Of a stretch of DNA of 31,759 nucleotides, positions 6,416-31,442 are shown in pieces. Source of the DNA: a virus; UHGV virus genome UHGV-0134350; one strand, given 5' to 3'. A program made the position numbers and the translations under genes. Within the stretch, counting starts at the first letter, position 1. Each line of letters opens with the position of its first letter. A model generated the notes under the pieces. The model did no database searches, was not told where the DNA came from, and was given only the letters and a program-made list of their open reading frames with translations.

Positions 6416-6492
6416 CCGGTTAACTCCGTGGTTAGTGGGCAAGTGTTATTGTCCTGGCTGGTCTGTTGAGGGGCTATTTGTCAGTGTTGGGC

Positions 6493-6515
6493 GATGTCTG
6501 ACACATTGAGACATC
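6493..6515. promoter_or_regulatory. imperfect dyad upstream of FI, candidate late-activator (Ogr/B-type) site
   Basis: gatgtct-N9-agacatc contains TGT-N13-ACA, centred about 90 bp upstream of the FI start; the P2 late-promoter consensus is TGT-N12-ACA. Confidence 0.3.
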
Positions 6516-6552
6516 AGCAACGGATGCGGGAAATTTTTTGTATAGCGTTGAG

Positions 6553-6755
6553 ATACCCGAGGCGATCCAGTTTCCAGACCACAAGCGTATCGCCCTCTGA
6601 CAAGGTTCTGAGTAACCTCTTTAGCCCGGCCAGTCTGATGTTTTGCCGCTGATTTTATCTTCGAAAATCAGCTCACATCCTGCGCACTCCAGTTCATTTC
6701 GCTGTAATGCGGTGTTCTGGTCATTTGTTGATACACGTACATAACCGATAAACAT
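6553..6755 (-). pseudogene. serine DNA invertase (Gin/Hin/Cin/Pin family) remnant, frameshifted and 3'-truncated
   Basis: Minus-strand translation gives MFIGYVRVSTNDQNTALQRNELECAGCELIFEDKISGKTSDWPG then a stop; a second frame continues with LKRLLRTLSEGDTLVVWKLDRLG, after which similarity ends. About 67 of roughly 190 aa remain. Confidence 0.75.
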
Positions 6756-6809: not shown

Positions 6810-6835
6810 TTTTCTAAAAGGTTGGTTTGGGAGAA
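6810..6835. repeat. left 26-bp hix/gix-like inversion crossover site
   Basis: TTTTCTAAAAGG-TT-GGTTTGGGAGAA; the inner half plus core (6822-6836) is a perfect inverted copy of 8757-8771; the outer half lacks the conserved AAACC. Confidence 0.65.
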
Positions 6836-7360
6836 GGTTCGGCATTACCCGTTGGCGTGCCTGTTCCGTGGCCTTCCGCCACTCCGCCAACAGGCTGGCT
6901 GAAATGCAACGGTGCCGCTTTTTCTGCTGAAGAATACCCGGAACTGGCAAAGGCTTATCCGACAAATAAATTGCCTGATTTACGTGGTGAGTTTATTCGT
7001 GGCTGGGATGACGGGCGTGGTGTGGATGCGGGACGTGCCTTGCTAAGTCTTCAGGATGACTCTTTTGAAGCGCACAGGCATGAGTCCTTTTTTTACGCGG
7101 GTATTTCTCGCAATGAAATACCATTAAAAAATCTTCCAAGTTCAGACGAGATGCTGACTTTAAGTTCTACAACTAATGCCTTGTCCCCGGACGGTATTGA
7201 TGCCACTAATTCGTTAATTGGTAATGATGATTACAACTGTCTGATTGAAGGAAATAAAAATAACAAACGAACAGCGACGGGGTTGAGTACCAGTATTGTC
7301 GGTGCAGCAGAGACACGCCCACGTAATATTTCATTTAATTACATTGTGAGGGCTGCATGA
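6827..7360 (+). CDS. alternative tail-fibre C-terminal segment (Hv'), silent in this orientation
   Basis: Frame opens inside the crossover site (LGEGSALPVGVPVPWPS...), has no ATG of its own, and carries a phage tail-collar-like motif; inversion would fuse it to the constant part of H. Confidence 0.7.
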   Translation: MGEGSALPVGVPVPWPSATPPTGWLKCNGAAFSAEEYPELAKAYPTNKLPDLRGEFIRGWDDGRGVDAGRALLSLQDDSFEAHRHESFFYAGISRNEIPLKNLPSSDEMLTLSSTTNALSPDGIDATNSLIGNDDYNCLIEGNKNNKRTATGLSTSIVGAAETRPRNISFNYIVRAA

Positions 7361-7962
7361 TGTATAACGCCATCTTGAATAGTAAATTTATTGCCACAAA
7401 GGCAGGAGAGATTACCGTTTATAACTATGACAGTGAGACACGGGAGTATATTTCTGCATCAACTGAATATCTTGCTGTGGGTGTCGGTATCCCTGCATAT
7501 TCCTGTTTAGATGCTCCTGGCACACATAAGGCTGGTTATGCAATCTGCCGTTCGGCAGATTTAAACTCATGGGAATATGTGTCAGACCATCGCGGTGAAA
7601 TCATCTATAGCACCGAAACAGGAGAATCGAAAGAAATCACAGCTCCGGGTGATTATCCTGAAAATACAACCACTATCGCCCCGTTAACGCCATACGATGA
7701 ATGGGATGGTGAGAAATGGGTAACAGATACTGTGGCACAGCATAGCGCCGCAGTAGGCGCGGCAGAAGCACAGCGTCAGTCACTGATTGATACTGCAATG
7801 GCTTCCATTAGTCTGATTCAGCTGAAATTGCAGGCCGGACGGAATCTGACGCAGGCAGAAACCGCCCGACTTAACGCTGCGCTGGATTACATTGACGCGG
7901 TGACGGCAACAGATACCAGCACCGCGCCGGATGTCATCTGGCCTGAACTGCCGGAGGCGTAG
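7357..7962 (+). CDS. tail fibre assembly protein (alternative, tfa')
   Basis: 201-aa ORF with typical Tfa C-terminus ...TSTAPDVIWPELPEA; ATG overlaps the Hv' stop. Confidence 0.8.
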   Translation: MMYNAILNSKFIATKAGEITVYNYDSETREYISASTEYLAVGVGIPAYSCLDAPGTHKAGYAICRSADLNSWEYVSDHRGEIIYSTETGESKEITAPGDYPENTTTIAPLTPYDEWDGEKWVTDTVAQHSAAVGAAEAQRQSLIDTAMASISLIQLKLQAGRNLTQAETARLNAALDYIDAVTATDTSTAPDVIWPELPEA

Positions 7963-8377
7963 GCCATTCAATATCTGGCGCACCGGAAGTATCGACCAGT
8001 TCCAGTGCGTCCAGATAATCCAGCCACAAATTATATTGCGCCAGTTCATCATCTTTCAGACGACCAATAGCGGCTTTACCGGGCCATTGCTTACTGTTCA
8101 TGTATTCGTTGGCCTGGTTAATTAGTAGCTGTCTTTCTGATTCAGTAATTTCAATAAGTTCTTCATGCGTGGGTGGAGGAATATCTGCCCACGCAGGCAG
8201 CCCATCATCTCCGGCAATACGGATTTTTCCTTGTGGCGGTTCAGCCATAAACTCACTGATAATATTTTGATTTACTTCCTTAGCGTCTGATAAATCCCAT
8301 CCCTCTGATTTATATTTATCAATCATATCCACAGGGAAAAAAGCATTATGCCTTGCGCTATAAACATATTCGTTCAT
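7934..8377 (-). CDS. tail fibre assembly protein (currently expressed orientation)
   Basis: Tfa-like C-terminus ...DTSGAPDIEWPTPP; start taken at ATG (MNEYVY) preceded by GGTGA; the track start at 8386 is GTG. Confidence 0.8.
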   Translation of the reverse strand: MNEYVYSARHNAFFPVDMIDKYKSEGWDLSDAKEVNQNIISEFMAEPPQGKIRIAGDDGLPAWADIPPPTHEELIEITESERQLLINQANEYMNSKQWPGKAAIGRLKDDELAQYNLWLDYLDALELVDTSGAPDIEWPTPPAVQAR

Positions 8378-8397
8378 ATAAATCACCCTGAATAAAA

Positions 8398-9378
8398 TTA
8401 CTCACCAACAGCCCACCAACTGTAATTCATCGATACCGTGTCGCTGGTTGATGACGTTCTGTAAGCAGAATTAAAGCCGGTTAACGTTGGGCCTTCTGCA
8501 GTCATCACGAACCCTCGCCCAGCGCCTAAAGGCGCACCGCCATCACCAGAATGAGTAAGCATGGCGCAGTCCGCTTTTTTGGGGAAAGGGATGCTGAATG
8601 TAATTCTCATTGTTTGCGTCGATAATGTCGGCGTAACCGCACCACGACCATATTGCAGGATTTTCCCGTTGGGTAATTTCATCCATCCATCACCACTGGC
8701 AAAAGAGGTCATGTCCGGTATCTGATTTTCCCCTGTCCCCACATCCCGTTTTGCCGCTTCTCCCAAACCAAGGTTTTTAAGAACGTCGCCGGCCAGTCCC
8801 GCGTCAACCATTTCTTTCAGAGCATTAGCGATTAACGGGTACTGCTTGTGTGGATTGGCGGCCTCAACATGTTTTTTCATCAGGTCATCAGCATATCCTT
8901 TCACCTCGATAATCTTGCCGTCGACATACTGGCGCGTTGCCAGCACGACTGCCGGGTCGATTTTCAGGGTGATTGCCGATGTGCTCGACACAATCAGAAT
9001 CATGCGAATGGTCTGCGTGCGACCGCTTCCCTCCTGCAGTTGTGGCTTGTAGGTCTCCGGACAGTTCGCCACGGCAATCAGAATACCATCATCGTCATAG
9101 AGACCAATCTCGCGGATCCAGAAACCACCTTCATTCTCGGGAATAATCTGTTCCGCGATAATCTGACTGGTATTGGCCGGGTCAACGGTCAGCAGGTTCA
9201 GCGGCGCGATGCGTTTCTGGTTAATGAGCTTCGTCTGCGCCGTATCAGGGGTCGGCAACGTACCATTCGCATCACCGACGGCCATCTGCGTCAGGTTGAG
9301 TTTGGTACCGAGTGCCGCCGCGTTCGCCAGCCGCGCCGCGCCCTGATTGGTCAGAATGGCAAAATATTTTGCGGTCAT
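8398..9378 (-). CDS. H: tail fibre protein gpH (constant N-terminal part about 8771-9378, variable C-terminal part 8398-8770)
   Basis: N-terminus is P2 H-like (...GGFWIREIGLYDDDGILIAVAN...SGRTQTIRMILIVSS); the constant/variable junction LG|LGE lies on the crossover site. Confidence 0.9.
   Translation of the reverse strand: MTAKYFAILTNQGAARLANAAALGTKLNLTQMAVGDANGTLPTPDTAQTKLINQKRIAPLNLLTVDPANTSQIIAEQIIPENEGGFWIREIGLYDDDGILIAVANCPETYKPQLQEGSGRTQTIRMILIVSSTSAITLKIDPAVVLATRQYVDGKIIEVKGYADDLMKKHVEAANPHKQYPLIANALKEMVDAGLAGDVLKNLGLGEAAKRDVGTGENQIPDMTSFASGDGWMKLPNGKILQYGRGAVTPTLSTQTMRITFSIPFPKKADCAMLTHSGDGGAPLGAGRGFVMTAEGPTLTGFNSAYRTSSTSDTVSMNYSWWAVGE
8758..8783. repeat. right 26-bp hix/gix-like inversion crossover site (inside H)
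   Basis: Coding orientation TTCTTAAAAACC-TT-GGTTTGGGAGAA; both half-sites match the invertase half-site pattern TTCTnnnAAACC. Confidence 0.7.
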
Positions 9379-20720: not shown

Positions 20721-21446
20721 TCAATCGTGAGTGGATATTTGCGAAACAAACTCTTTAACTCCATCTCGTTCAAGTATTTTACTGTCATGGATATACTTTA
20801 CGATATCCCACTCGTAGTATGTACAAGCCATTGCAACTAAAGATATTATTTTTATGTCAGTTAAGTTAACTAATGTTTCATAATAATCTTCCCGTTCAAC
20901 CCCGCAATTATCTATCAACTTCACAATCAAATAAAAGCGACGCACCACTGAAAAAATGCAATCATTAGCATCCACTTCACTTAACCACTTTGTTATTACC
21001 TCTTTTTTTACCTTGGCTTTAACTAAAATTACAATATTATCTTCAAGATAAGTTACGGCTGCACCACTTGTAAATTCTTCGACCACCCCGTCAGTTTGTC
21101 CATCAATATCACCAACTTGAACACAAAACCTTTCAAAGTTAGAATCCTGACATTCAACCAAATGGAAAAATCTCACTTCAAATTTTTTATACTCTTCTAA
21201 AGATTCTTGCCTTTTTACTTCATCGATCAGGCTGGAATTAGCCTCCCTTTGAAGTTTTATTGAATTTATAAGGAGGTAAATTGTAATAAATGAAAGTATA
21301 GGGTTGACGACACCACCCAAATAATCACCAAACTGCGCCCAAACATCAGTCTTGCTGGATAAATGTCCGTTTACTCCGAAGTTGAAGTAATACAAGGCGC
21401 ACACAGCTACAATCACGCCAGCCGAAGACAGCAACACCTTTCTCAT
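20721..21446 (-). CDS. cargo protein with two N-terminal transmembrane helices (candidate membrane effector)
   Basis: 241-aa ORF in markedly AT-rich DNA; hydrophobic helices VLLSSAGVIVAVCALYYF and LGGVVNPILSFITIYLLI; ATG overlaps the stop of the upstream gene (ATGA). Confidence 0.75.
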   Translation of the reverse strand: MRKVLLSSAGVIVAVCALYYFNFGVNGHLSSKTDVWAQFGDYLGGVVNPILSFITIYLLINSIKLQREANSSLIDEVKRQESLEEYKKFEVRFFHLVECQDSNFERFCVQVGDIDGQTDGVVEEFTSGAAVTYLEDNIVILVKAKVKKEVITKWLSEVDANDCIFSVVRRFYLIVKLIDNCGVEREDYYETLVNLTDIKIISLVAMACTYYEWDIVKYIHDSKILERDGVKEFVSQISTHD

Positions 21447-22261
21447 ACAGTTTCAACCATACGGATTAGATATTTCACCACATCACCACTTTTTACTACA
21501 ACTTTGCTAACAGTAAGTTTTAGATATGTGTAGTTATCTTGCCTGCCATTATTATTGTGTAAATTTAATGAGACCAATCTTTTTTGAGCGGCGGGTATAG
21601 CCTTTAAAGGCATGTAAAAACCAAAGGCTACTGTATCATCTTCACCTTCGATAACTAACCTACCATTTCCAGTTCTCGCATTAAATCGAGTAATAACTGC
21701 GTTAATATTAACTTGACCGGGCTTTATTTTTGATTGTGTCAAGTTTGTAGCAGTCATTGTGTCTAACTTTGCTATTCTTTGTTTTCCAGCAGGTTTTTTA
21801 TAGTTAAGTTCAACATCAAAGTTTTTTTGAAGATTTATCCTATGCATCCTTACCAAAGGTTGTCTGATACGATCAATAAGTTCATCTTCAATTTCCTCAA
21901 GCTCCTCAATAATTCCTGCAGCTTTTGGAGATAGCTCCTTAGTTTCCAGATATAGAGATTCAGAAATAAAATACCCCATGACTTCCGAGAACACAGAACG
22001 GGTCATTTTTTTTAATTCGGCAGCTAATTCCGGCTCATTAACAATCAAGTCGAAGTTTTGACCATAAGAACTTTTAAAGCTTTGTTTGAGAACCGCTCGC
22101 GCAGGGTTAACATGAGTGCGGCGCTTAATAATTTTTTTTCTGAGTATTGCCTCTGCTAGTATGCATGTCACCTCAGCCGTTCCAGAGAGGGTATCAAGGC
22201 CATACTCCATATCAACTTCTTGATCACCACTTTTGATGACAACGTCATAGCTAACTTTCAT
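21443..22261 (-). CDS. cargo protein of unknown function (candidate sensor partner)
   Basis: 272 aa from the ATG (MKVSYDVV...) preceded by AAGGA; the track start is a GTG two codons upstream; AT-rich; no motif I recognise. Confidence 0.75.
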   Translation of the reverse strand: MKVSYDVVIKSGDQEVDMEYGLDTLSGTAEVTCILAEAILRKKIIKRRTHVNPARAVLKQSFKSSYGQNFDLIVNEPELAAELKKMTRSVFSEVMGYFISESLYLETKELSPKAAGIIEELEEIEDELIDRIRQPLVRMHRINLQKNFDVELNYKKPAGKQRIAKLDTMTATNLTQSKIKPGQVNINAVITRFNARTGNGRLVIEGEDDTVAFGFYMPLKAIPAAQKRLVSLNLHNNNGRQDNYTYLKLTVSKVVVKSGDVVKYLIRMVETV

Positions 22262-22369
22262 CGGCACATCCTTGATTTAGTAACCTTTGGTTATTATTTT
22301 TCATCTTCTACTCATTGACACCGATTTTTTACACCAAAAATATCAAATTGCAAGTGTGTGCTGCGCGCA

Positions 22370-28219: not shown

Positions 28220-29080
28220 ATGAGTTCTGAGCTTGATGTTCAGTGGCGTGTTAGTGCAACGAACGGCGTATTGGAACGCTTAATGTCAGCCTATGGGGTC
28301 AAGATGCAAAAGGATTTGGCTGACCTGCTAGGTATCGCTAAACACAGCGTTAGCGGCTGGGTTCAGCGTGATGCAATACCTGGCAATGTCATAGTTAGGT
28401 GTTGTCTTGACACGGGAGCTGATATCAATTGGCTTGTAAATGGAGAACTTGCAAATGCAAATCACGAGCGAGCCAGTTGCAAGTTAAAAGGCAAAGAGCT
28501 TTATGACGAGATTATGACGAATGGTGGTAAAACCGTTTTGCGTAGGATTCTTGATGCGTATGGCTTTACCATGCAAAAGGAGCTCGGTGATTTGCTCGGC
28601 ATTTCCTCTGGCACAATTAGCACATGGGTAAGGCGAGATTTTTTCCCTGGTGATGTTGTTGTTACATGCGCTCTTGATACCGATACGTCACTGGAATGGT
28701 TAGCAACAGGCAAGGGGCAAATGCGAGCTAACAGGGAAGATGTCACATCTGGTTTTTCTATTAAAAAATCTCGTCTTGAATCTGGTGAGCTTAAGGATGC
28801 AGGAACGTGGCATCCTGACCCCTCAATGATTCCTTCTAACTCAGGGGAATTGATTTTTGTTGACGGTGTAGCTGCCTCTTGGCTTGTCGACTGTTCTGCT
28901 TCGAATATAAGTAATGGTCGCTGGTTAATTGATATCGACGGCGCTCTTGATGTTTTTGATGTAATTCGCTTGCCCGGTGGAAAAGTCAGGTTGTCAAATA
29001 AGTCTGCTGAGTTTGAATGCAACATTACAGACATTACTCCTGCCGGGGCTGTAGTTTTCACATTGGAAAAACACGTGTAA
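28220..29080 (+). CDS. cI: CI-type immunity repressor (186 CI-like) with tandem duplicated N-terminal DNA-binding domain
   Basis: 286-aa ORF; two internally similar segments (aa about 18-77 and 96-163) of the phage CI repressor HTH type, then a CI C-terminal-like domain. Confidence 0.8.
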   Translation: MSSELDVQWRVSATNGVLERLMSAYGVKMQKDLADLLGIAKHSVSGWVQRDAIPGNVIVRCCLDTGADINWLVNGELANANHERASCKLKGKELYDEIMTNGGKTVLRRILDAYGFTMQKELGDLLGISSGTISTWVRRDFFPGDVVVTCALDTDTSLEWLATGKGQMRANREDVTSGFSIKKSRLESGELKDAGTWHPDPSMIPSNSGELIFVDGVAASWLVDCSASNISNGRWLIDIDGALDVFDVIRLPGGKVRLSNKSAEFECNITDITPAGAVVFTLEKHV

Positions 29081-29088
29081 GGGACATT

Positions 29089-29418
29089 ATGAAATGTAAA
29101 CTCTTTTTAGCTCTGCTTCTTACCCTTTCTTTTGGAGCCTCAGCCGCTGAAAAAACACAGGATTTAGATGGCGCTAAGTTTGGTGAGGATTGGCCGTTAA
29201 CTTTTGAAAAAGCTACGGTGTCTTGTGTCAACGGTAAATATGCCTTTGTGTACGACAAAGCAACAGATGACCAAATGGTTTTGCGATTGATGGAGTAAAG
29301 TCTGGAAAGCTTGAGGGGAGCAATATTGATACTGTTTGGAAAGATAGCCCGGAGTATGCAGGCGTAAAAATTCCTTTGGATCCTGTAATGGATGCTGCAA
29401 CAGCACTTTGGGAATAAT
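29089..29418 (+). pseudogene. small secreted protein gene interrupted by a 1-nt frameshift (moron between cI and int)
   Basis: ATG with GGGA RBS; signal peptide MKCKLFLALLLTLSFGASA; the frame stops at 29298 but another frame continues NGFAIDGVKSGKLEGSNIDTVWKDSPEYAGVKIPLDPVMDAATALWE to 29418. Confidence 0.5.
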
Positions 29419-30596: not shown

Positions 30597-31442
30597 TTAT
30601 GATGGTAATTCTATTTCATCATGATCATCAACTTTTTCAAAGTCACCGGCTTTAATTGGGACAGGTTTAAGTTCAATTTCACCGAAACCCATTGGGAAAA
30701 GACTATGAGTAGTGTCTTGTTTGCAAAAATAAGATACCAAATCAAATCCACAGGAAACTTTTTTTATAAAGTCATCTGATAGTAAAATGCATAAAAAAGA
30801 TGAGTCTTCTTTTGTTTCTGTGTTTTTCTTTGTTGTCTTGGGGTGAATTATGTCATTTCTAAGTGACTCAAGGCTTTTAAAATCTTGCCATAGTTTTGAA
30901 CCTTTAGGTGAATCACAATTTAAAATAGACGGTAGGATTTTATCTATTTTTTCACTTGTTGGTATATATCGCTCAATTAGCTCTTTGCTATAGGATTCTT
31001 TGATTCCCTTGGCATTGTTTTTTTCATAAACATAATCATGTGGTATGCATATATTTGCAAAAGACTCAATTGCAGTATACATAGAAATAATGGCCGTCTG
31101 AATTGATTCAAAGTAATTATAGAGTCTCGGCAGGTCTTTGTCGGAAATTTTAAAGTTTTTATGTTTGGTTTTGTGTATTTTTCCAAAAAGACTTTTATAT
31201 ATAGAATTGGATTTTGAGAGCTCTTTTTTTGCTGAGGATAAGAATATAGAAACGTTATTTGGGGTGAAAAAACTAACTGTCGCACCAGATAATGTGGCTT
31301 TATCTGACATTTGCAATGTCAAATTTAAATTTTCTTCTTCTATTCTTGCTATGATTGGTCTCTGCATCCTGATATCGATAATCTGGATTGTATCCTTTTT
31401 TGACACGTTCTTCTCCGTGGATGTTTTGTGGTTAAAAAACAA
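30597..31442 (-). CDS. hypothetical protein in AT-rich flank, HEPN-like R-x4-H motif
   Basis: 281-codon open frame in very AT-rich DNA, which is unlikely by chance; motif LESLRNDIIHP; the track start is TTG and the true start is uncertain. Confidence 0.55.
   Translation of the reverse strand: MFFNHKTSTEKNVSKKDTIQIIDIRMQRPIIARIEEENLNLTLQMSDKATLSGATVSFFTPNNVSIFLSSAKKELSKSNSIYKSLFGKIHKTKHKNFKISDKDLPRLYNYFESIQTAIISMYTAIESFANICIPHDYVYEKNNAKGIKESYSKELIERYIPTSEKIDKILPSILNCDSPKGSKLWQDFKSLESLRNDIIHPKTTKKNTETKEDSSFLCILLSDDFIKKVSCGFDLVSYFCKQDTTHSLFPMGFGEIELKPVPIKAGDFEKVDDHDEIELPS

Follow-up and report, generated by a model that had tools for sequence, protein, structure and literature searches.

Inversion of tail-fibre segments is known from phages Mu and P1, from the e14 element and from P2-like prophages, and the locus described here adds little that is new in principle. 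In the Mu G (gin) and P1/P7 C (cin) systems, as in the present one, recombination at 26-bp sites swaps a C-terminal fibre exon together with a chaperone; in Mu and P1/P7 the invertase gene also contains an enhancer in its 5′ part, where the present locus has a homologous block. The e14 P segment has the same layout as the present locus, with an invertase gene, a crossover site, a silent exon and its chaperone, the chaperone and exon in use, and a second site inside the fibre gene. PinE, PinQ and PinR each invert the e14 P segment, acting on repeats with the same 15-bp core, and PinQ is encoded by a different prophage than its e14 target (PMC12529663); Fin of Fels-2 acts on the Salmonella H segment, as cited in passages of PMC12529663 and PMC4272514. 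Invertible tail fibres are also already known in the P2-like group, namely in phage pro483 and in prophages of EPEC E2348/69; for the EPEC prophages, inversion was demonstrated by PCR and sequencing (PMC4272514).

The 31.8-kb window (the whole stretch of DNA that was analysed) corresponds in the RefSeq annotation to a complete prophage of the 186 type, lying between the genes yfiB and rplS of Escherichia coli ECE313 (assembly GCF_051561535.1). It very probably carries a Pin-type host-range switch within a complete 186/P2-type prophage, whose own invertase is dead and whose segment is most likely still flipped in trans. The tail genes follow the order V-W-J-I-H-Tfa-FI-FII-E-T-U-D with P2-type domains, as in the P2 family (Peduoviridae); the ORF map and Pfam matches to Tail_P2_I, the Phage_tail_fib N-terminal domain and sheath domains define the module. 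The original prediction described the invertible segment as grafted onto a P2-type H gene, and the P2-type constant part and tail module agree with this, but the arrangement is not unusual, as pro483 and O157:H7 prophages share it. No convincing match was obtained for the prophage cargo ORFs using PADLOC and Pfam.

The predicted perfect 15-bp inverted repeat was recovered: TTGGTTTGGGAGAAG has exactly two copies in the window, at 6822-6836 (plus strand) and, as the reverse complement, at 8757-8771, and a search of the same 31.8 kb allowing up to two mismatches returned no further copy. An inverted repeat arising by chance was rejected, with 0.06 matches expected by chance, two or more copies in none of 100 shuffles, and extension to a 29-nt inverted pair (83% complementary) that is the longest within the surrounding 5 kb. 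A shufflon-like third crossover site, as in one EPEC prophage, was also rejected, no extra core copy having been found at two mismatches.

The left, invertase-proximal crossover site is of the pix type and spans 26 bp at 6810-6835 (TTTTCTAAAAGG-TT-GGTTTGGGAGAA, centre 6822-6823), and the right 26-bp site, within gene H, spans 8758-8783 (TTCTCCCAAACC-AA-GGTTTTTAAGAA, centre 8770-8771), leaving an invertible segment of 1948 bp between the crossover points (6823-8770). As in the Din family, both are imperfect palindromes, they are inverted relative to each other and their central dinucleotides match (TT and AA, complementary); as an inverted pair they agree at 21 of 26 positions, and the half-sites of both fit the TTCTCNNAAACC pattern common to pix, cix and gix. 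The sites had been likened to gix and hix; they are real, but whereas gix and cix match at only 17-20 of 26 positions, Mu also having a different central dinucleotide, e14 pix matches at 23 of 26 (left site against the pinE-proximal pix, right site against the distal pix). Read on the minus strand, the right site encodes V-L-K-N-L-G-L-G-E in frame with H, at the LG|LGE junction anticipated (...VLKNLG|LGE...), and a flip leaves the reading frame open. The right site is identical in every relative with the same invertase remnant.

In its present form gene H (9378-8398, minus strand) encodes 326 aa. The constant N-terminal part, Hc (8771-9378, minus strand, ~203-204 codons), includes an N-terminal domain of the Phage_tail_fib type (Pfam PF12571, E=1e-62, residues 1-150), a domain that fixes the fibre to the baseplate, and is shared with EC1 and CH425 at 100% identity. 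The C-terminal exon in the current orientation, Hv (8398-8770, minus strand, ~122 codons), encodes a gp53-like predicted receptor-binding domain (Pfam PF21882 Gp53-like_C, E=6e-12) with 98-99% identity to the O157 EC4115/pro483 exon, and the H ORF is unbroken across Hc and Hv, though PGAP cuts the gene in two. The chaperone gene co-oriented with this exon (7934-8386, PGAP start 8377, minus strand; Pfam Caudo_TAP, E=4e-31) has 97-98% identity to EC4115/pro483 and 54% to e14 TfaP.

On the opposite strand lie the silent alternative exon, Hv′ (6824-7360, plus strand, 178 codons; Pfam Collar, E=1e-15), and the co-oriented TfaE-like silent chaperone gene, Tfa′ (7357-7962, plus strand; Pfam Caudo_TAP, E=4e-31). 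Hv′ is free of stop codons over its whole length, from the crossover point onwards, while each of 20000 shuffled versions contained an in-frame stop; it has 55% identity to e14 StfE and 61% to EC4115, while Tfa′ has 87.6% identity to e14 TfaE; no decay was found in the 379 codons of the silent cassette. When the segment was flipped in silico at the central dinucleotide, the H N-terminus was fused in frame to Hv′ to give an intact H′ of 381 aa. The locus thus has a site inside H, two open forms of H and one Caudo_TAP chaperone for each orientation, and the two opposed cassettes of exon plus chaperone that had been proposed were borne out by Pfam and PHROGs. One tip is of the Gp53-like_C family and the other of the Collar family, which is suggestive of differing receptor or host specificity.

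As judged from site and cassette similarity, the nearest relative among the classical systems is the e14 P segment rather than Mu G or P1 C. The 15-bp core agrees at every base with the crossover repeat published for e14 (PMC12529663), as does the left-site 16-mer TTGGTTTGGGAGAAGG with the inversion repeat of e14 (PMC12529663), and the e14 inner half-site TTCTCCCAAACC and AA/TT centre are the same as those of the window. Cassette similarity is of the pix subtype (TfaE 88%, StfE 55%, TfaP 54%), with the exception of the gp53-like exon, for which tblastn against the e14 segment gave no match at E<=0.01, and the invertase remnant shares 77% nucleotide identity with e14 pinE over 200 nt. The two elements differ in that e14 is defective with an intact pinE, whereas the ECE313 prophage is complete with a dead invertase, and in that the constant part in ECE313 is a P2-type H N-terminus.

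The comparison with Mu and P1 that the original prediction had suggested was performed by tblastn, and the four cassette proteins of the window gave no match at E<=1e-3 to S, S′, U or U′ of Mu or P7; homology to the Mu/P1 cassettes was rejected. Of the Mu G/P1 C/e14 P architecture that had been proposed, the exon and chaperone swap stands, but the content is e14-type. The window system would work like Mu G and P1 C, yet it is of a different cassette family. The invertase of the intact relatives shares ~78% amino-acid identity with Gin and Cin, and in both Mu and the ECE313 prophage transcription of the invertase gene leads away from the segment, unlike in P1/P7, where cin is transcribed towards it.

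Among P2-like prophages, pro483 and those of O157:H7 EC4115/TW14359 agree with the window in gene order from gpI to the sheath gene and in the placement and direction of the invertase gene. The active cassette of pro483 and EC4115 is 98-99% identical to that of the window, whereas identity is only 82% in the constant part of H (over residues 1-180) and only 61% in the silent collar exon. The invertase-proximal site has the outer half TTTTCTAAAAGG in the window and TTTTCATAAACG in the pro483/O157 group. These relatives encode an intact invertase of 197 aa; the gene in the window has a frameshift and an internal deletion.

Immediately left of the invertible segment, where an intact serine invertase of ~190 aa with catalytic Ser10 and a C-terminal helix-turn-helix would be expected, there is only a serine DNA-invertase pseudogene (6474-6755, minus strand). 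The first 44 codons, which encode the catalytic-serine motif YVRVSTNDQ, are undamaged and match the Pfam Resolvase N-terminal domain and the PHROG 'DNA invertase'; they are followed by a 1-bp deletion near 6625, which shifts the frame, and an internal deletion of ~312 bp (codons ~68-171, junction near 6556), and the final ~25 codons and stop are still present. RefSeq labels the remnant 'recombinase family protein; frameshifted; incomplete'. As the gene is a pseudogene here and intact in EC4115 and pro483, the locus is derived from a full Din-family member and is now non-autonomous, and the death of the adjoining invertase alters how the switch would work in the ECE313 prophage. The original prediction had named no invertase gene, beyond the idea of supplying one in trans.

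A block homologous to the Fis-dependent recombinational enhancer was located at 6670-6737 (minus strand), corresponding to nt 19-86 of the invertase gene and upstream of both lesions; cin nt 19-86 are annotated as the enhancer in the P7 record. The block is identical at 56 of 68 positions to the P7 cin enhancer and at 59 of 68 to EC4115, a conservation confounded by its past coding role (YVRVSTNDQ and CAGCE motifs). The distance from crossover centre to enhancer-block centre is 119 bp, equal to that of Mu gixR/gin. Enhancers of this family comprise two Fis sites, and a strict Fis-core motif was found at the distal position only. Inversion in the ECE313 prophage may be Fis-dependent.

Both orientations were found among relatives. 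The closest complete-genome matches, which are mostly O157:H7, divide 48 (ECE313 included) to 46 between the two orientations, and O157 relatives with an intact invertase divide 47 to 46; EC4115 is separated from TW14359 by an exact inversion of 1908 bp, between flanks of 100% identity. The truncated invertase of the window is common to at least 35 complete E. coli genomes, and within this group two pairs of strains with the same dead invertase, EC12/EC15 and CH423/CH425, differ by a precise inversion of a 1.87-kb segment between 100% identical flanks, the CH425 backbone being 99.6% identical to the window. Among the 30 remnant carriers listed, ~16 have a window-like and ~11 a flipped-like arrangement, as judged from neighbouring annotation, a reading that was correct in five of five cases fetched. 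A single orientation across many genomes had been named in advance as part of the outcome that would speak against a switch; in these homologous segments both orientations occur, with breakpoints at the sites. The exact cassette pair of the window is found in one genome only, ECE313, hence one orientation is known for this allele. Comparison of the sister strains shows that inversion took place after loss of the invertase. These flips are silent on the acting enzyme and on the rate.

A source of invertase elsewhere in the cell was indicated by matches to the part of the invertase gene that is missing from the remnant. Using a chimeric query (a lysogen-specific tag joined to the invertase) and comparing place counts with those of genomes carrying the tag only, three further matching loci were counted in ECE313 and two in the CH strains, with coordinates and intactness lying outside the count; the tag-only control genomes had no extra loci matching this part. 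With three other invertase-like loci in ECE313, trans flipping is the likely mechanism, and the segment would most likely be inverted by the Pin/Gin-type invertases of other prophages; we infer that ECE313 itself flips it. The action of PinQ and PinR on e14 P, and of Fin on the H segment, is alike in that the invertase of one prophage flips a distant segment, but the e14 and Salmonella targets keep their own invertase (pinE and hin), whereas that of the ECE313 segment has been lost in cis, which would make trans action obligatory.

Alternatively, with its invertase destroyed, the ECE313 segment might be a frozen relic, locked in the gp53-like orientation with a silent cassette that has merely not yet decayed. 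The pseudogene, the single orientation known for the exact ECE313 allele, and the fact that the other invertase-like loci in ECE313 are known by place counts alone are consistent with this explanation. It is nevertheless unlikely, since a precise flip separates the members of two clonal pairs that share this dead invertase, one pair having a backbone 99.6% identical to the window, the listed remnant carriers are divided between both arrangements, both sites, the enhancer block and all 379 silent codons are undamaged, and Pin enzymes work in trans on the identical core (PMC12529663). The differences in orientation between sister strains might instead result from RecA-dependent recombination between the short repeats or from assembly error, and the breakpoints in the strain pairs can indeed be placed only within 15-21 bp of shared sequence, so that the chemistry of exchange is not visible. 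This we regard as the least probable explanation of all. The repeat is perfect over only 15 bp and matches at 21 of 26 positions overall, which is shorter than efficient RecA recombination needs in E. coli and far too short to fool long-read assembly; moreover, three independent strain pairs and the ~1:1 split over 94 genomes point to an efficient, dedicated process, and experiments have proven that Pin enzymes act on this core (PMC12529663).

It is also conceivable, though highly improbable, that the switch serves the host, with fibre variants acting as bacterial surface or receptor-blocking anti-phage proteins in the manner of e14 StfE2, for which a role in anti-phage defence has been reported (PMC12529663). 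The active exon has a gp53-like domain, as the e14 study describes for StfE2 (PMC12529663), the silent cassette is close to that of e14 in both TfaE and StfE, and the switch has outlasted its own invertase. However, the prophage is complete, unlike e14, and H lies in an intact late tail operon, so that host-range switching of the virion suffices as an explanation, and the gp53-like exon of the window is the one without a tblastn match in the e14 segment at E<=0.01.

The reading preferred here is thus a host-range switch driven in trans. H would be expressed as part of the late tail operon V-W-J-I-H-Tfa, with a constant stretch of ~204 codons at its start, while the remainder of H would be exchanged, together with the chaperone gene, within the 1948-bp segment between the inverted 26-bp pix-type sites. 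The present orientation would yield the 326-aa fibre with its gp53-like tip and matching chaperone, and inversion at the central AA/TT would fuse the constant part in frame to the Collar tip (381 aa), with a change to the TfaE-like chaperone; the two tips may give different receptor specificity. Because the invertase of the prophage is dead and the cis elements are intact, namely the two crossover sites and, in the 5′ part of the defunct gene, the block homologous to the enhancer, the segment is most likely still flipped in trans, by Pin/Gin-type invertases that other prophages would provide in the same cell. A more speculative extension, which we consider possible but rather doubtful, is that in the lineage of at least 35 genomes selection keeps the switch as an obligately trans-driven device that depends on the invertases of co-resident prophages and has possibly been co-opted by the host, as reported for e14 StfE2; this would account for the survival of both crossover sites, the enhancer block and an undecayed silent cassette. 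If true, this lineage would represent an invertase-sharing network among prophages.

A lineage that still flips with a dead invertase would be a natural case of cross-talk between prophage invertases, and could be suited to working out the site preferences of the resident Pin enzymes. For genome comparison, differences in orientation between otherwise identical isolates represent phase variation rather than strain differences or misassemblies. The switch is unannotated in RefSeq and misleads automatic annotation: in one orientation, H is annotated as a 'partial' gene followed by a 'gp53-like domain' gene.

The 15-mer TTGGTTTGGGAGAAG was located by exact match search at 6822-6836 and, as its reverse complement, at 8757-8771, and these are its only two copies in the window with up to two mismatches allowed (0.06 expected by chance; at least two copies in 0 of 100 shuffles). 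The inverted pair extends to 29 nt with 83% complementarity, making it the longest inverted repeat of the surrounding 5 kb. The two copies fall in 26-bp sites at 6810-6835 (TTTTCTAAAAGG-TT-GGTTTGGGAGAA) and 8758-8783 (TTCTCCCAAACC-AA-GGTTTTTAAGAA), as in the original prediction of a perfect 15-bp repeat within sites of this length; the sites match at 21 of 26 positions as an inverted pair and their central dinucleotides are complementary.

Within H (9378-8398, minus strand; 326 aa) the right site is translated in frame as V-L-K-N-L-G-L-G-E. H combines a P2-type N-terminal fibre domain (PF12571, E=1e-62) with a Gp53-like C-terminal domain and is followed by the active Caudo_TAP chaperone (8386-7934, minus strand). 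The silent cassette is oriented oppositely, with an exon ORF carrying a Collar domain (6827-7360, plus strand) and a second Caudo_TAP chaperone (7357-7962, plus strand). Recombined in silico at their central dinucleotides, the sites join the first ~204 H codons to the collar exon with the frame kept, and the resulting 381-aa product is open; between the crossover point and its natural end the silent exon has no stop codon, and none of 20000 exon shuffles was open. The anatomy predicted originally, an in-frame right site in H and two opposed exon-chaperone cassettes, is correct in every particular because the domain matches, the reading frame of the right site and the open fusion all agree with it. 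With the gp53-like exon joined, as in ECE313 and EC4115, RefSeq/PGAP cuts H in two and labels the parts 'phage tail protein, incomplete' and 'gp53-like domain-containing protein', although the ORF is uncut in that orientation; in TW14359, which has the other orientation, one full-length gene is called. This orientation-dependent annotation of the H ORFs (window 8398-9378; comparison loci L003 5099-6079 and L004 3868-5067) is an artefact caused by the switch.

Both orientations were found among relatives when 5426 complete E. coli genomes were searched with two queries, the region itself and a copy flipped in silico (threshold at least 80% of the query). The window orientation was present in 48 genomes (ECE313 plus 47 more, for the most part O157:H7-type prophages whose invertase is intact) and the flipped orientation in 46, so the first part of the case named in the original prediction as refuting it, a single orientation across many genomes, did not occur. 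Between EC4115 and TW14359 the flanks are 100% identical and the segment is inverted over exactly 1908 bp, the ends of the inversion lying within the repeat. Strain TUM11352 carries the O157-type segment twice in one assembly, flipped on the chromosome and in the window orientation on a separate 88-kb record (NZ_CP134384.1, H109; NZ_CP134387.1, H65), which could reflect an extrachromosomal or duplicated prophage or a mixed-population assembly.

An invertase gene, which the original prediction mentioned only as something to be supplied in trans, starts at 6755 on the minus strand, directly left of the left site. Its product matches Pfam Resolvase and PHROG 'DNA invertase' and opens with the resolvase/invertase family's catalytic-serine motif, MFIGYVRVSTNDQ. 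Alignment to the invertases of the O157:H7 EC4115 prophage and phage pro483, both intact at 197 aa, revealed two lesions. One is the loss of 1 bp near 6625 (codon ~45); the other is an internal deletion of ~312 bp with its junction near 6556, removing codons ~68-171, which comprise most of the catalytic domain and the DNA-binding domain. The last ~25 codons and the stop (6474) are kept, and RefSeq labels the remnant 'frameshifted; incomplete'.

This truncated remnant is common to 35 genomes, and among the 30 of these listed, ~16 have the window orientation and ~11 the opposite one, as judged from neighbouring annotation, a reading confirmed in all 5 cases checked. Two pairs with the same dead invertase, EC12 and EC15 (urine, Hangzhou, same study) and CH423 and CH425 (one Islamabad hospital, same study; genomes of 4,740,904 bp and 4,740,899 bp), each have 100% identical flanks and differ by a precise ~1.87-kb inversion, so inversion has taken place since the invertase was lost. 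The CH425 backbone is 99.6% identical to the window; its cassettes differ. Compared with window 6556-6755, EC12 and EC15 have the internal deletion and apparently lack the 1-bp frameshift (match of 421 bp versus 420 bp; annotated 'incomplete' without 'frameshifted'), which suggests that the frameshift arose after the large deletion.

The title of Kahmann et al. 1985 (cited in PMC3798978) places the Mu enhancer 'within the invertase gene', and the P7 record annotates the inversion enhancer as cin nt 19-86. The homologous block, at 6670-6737 in the remnant and upstream of both lesions, is identical at 56 of 68 positions to the P7 enhancer and at 59 of 68 to the intact O157 gene, and is centred 119 bp from the crossover centre, the same distance as in Mu gixR-gin. 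By homology and geometry it is a putative Fis-binding enhancer, its conservation being confounded by the former coding of conserved protein motifs.

In operation the system resembles Mu G, P1 C and e14 P, of which e14 is its closest classical relative: the sites match e14 pix at 23 of 26 positions and gix and cix at 17-20 of 26, and identity is 87.6% between the silent chaperone and TfaE, 55% between the collar exon and StfE and 54% between the active chaperone and TfaP. The BLAST comparison originally proposed as a check gave no match at E<=1e-3 between any of the four cassette proteins and the segments of Mu or P7. The predicted Mu G / P1 C / e14 P architecture is right in kind, but of e14/pix type rather than Mu/P1 in content. 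Its placement in a P2-type tail module also holds and is not novel, with the same layout, invertase annotated, in pro483 and O157 prophages, and inversion shown for two P2-like prophages of EPEC E2348/69 by both sequencing and PCR (PMC4272514). A close homologue of the invertase occurs in 115 phage records, including P2-like (Peduoviridae), Mu-like and P1-like phages. The cassettes are mosaic: identity to O157 is 98-99% for the active cassette, 82% for the constant part of H and 61% for the silent exon. The one notable feature is the combination of a dead invertase, intact cis elements and comparative evidence that such copies still flip.

Apart from the integrase and the dead invertase, the prophage has no recombinase gene. 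The crossover core is identical to the e14 P-segment repeats, checked against K-12 and published as 5'-TTGGTTTGGGAGAAGG / CCTTCTCCCAAACCAA (PMC12529663). PinE, PinQ and PinR, PinQ coming from a different cryptic prophage, were each shown experimentally to invert at these repeats; the same paper recalls that Fels-2 Fin acts on the Salmonella H segment and PinE on Mu G. A chimeric query joining a lysogen-specific junction tag to invertase genes matched five places in ECE313, four in the CH strains and one in tag-only control genomes. Limiting it to the invertase part deleted from the remnant gave four, three and one, lowering each lysogen by exactly one place with the controls constant, so ECE313 has three other candidate loci, and the CH strains two, in which the catalytic and DNA-binding part of a Pin/Gin-type gene is retained, as nucleotide place counts that are blind to distant PinQ/PinR-type enzymes (38% identical to PinE; PMC12529663). 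The best explanation, which we regard as probable, is that the segment would be flipped in trans by invertases of resident prophages, its own invertase being dead and its cis elements intact. We are less confident that ECE313 itself is active as a switch; the main rival, that the segment is a frozen relic in ECE313 in particular, would fit the dead invertase, and we consider it unlikely given the flipped remnant carriers.

The window is 100% identical to the ECE313 chromosome and spans nearly the whole of a 186/P2-type prophage whose insertion point lies between yfiB and rplS, with int, CI, CII, Fil, replication gene A, portal, terminase, capsid and lysis genes, an Ogr-like regulator and a minus-strand tail module in the order V-W-J-I-H-Tfa-FI-FII-E-T-U-D. 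The only broken genes flagged are the invertase and a small DUF2511 gene between integrase and CI (29089-29417, from locus L015 10177-10505), the sole other gene that RefSeq marks frameshifted. The 286-aa CI repressor (28220-29080, plus strand) has two Phage_CI_repr helix-turn-helix stretches and a CI C-terminal domain, and its DNA-binding domain looks duplicated relative to the usual arrangement. Variable cargo is common between the portal gene and the replication region in P2-family phages, and two overlapping minus-strand ORFs here (20721-21446 and 21443-22267; 241 and 274 aa) had no match in Pfam or PADLOC. A 281-aa cargo ORF (30597-31442, minus strand) between the yfiB-side attachment junction and the integrase matched no Pfam family; its weak PADLOC match over aa 114-200 to an RT-associated HEPN model (E=1.3e-4) and its RxxxxH-like motif (SLRNDIIHP) point to a possible role in defence or abortive infection.
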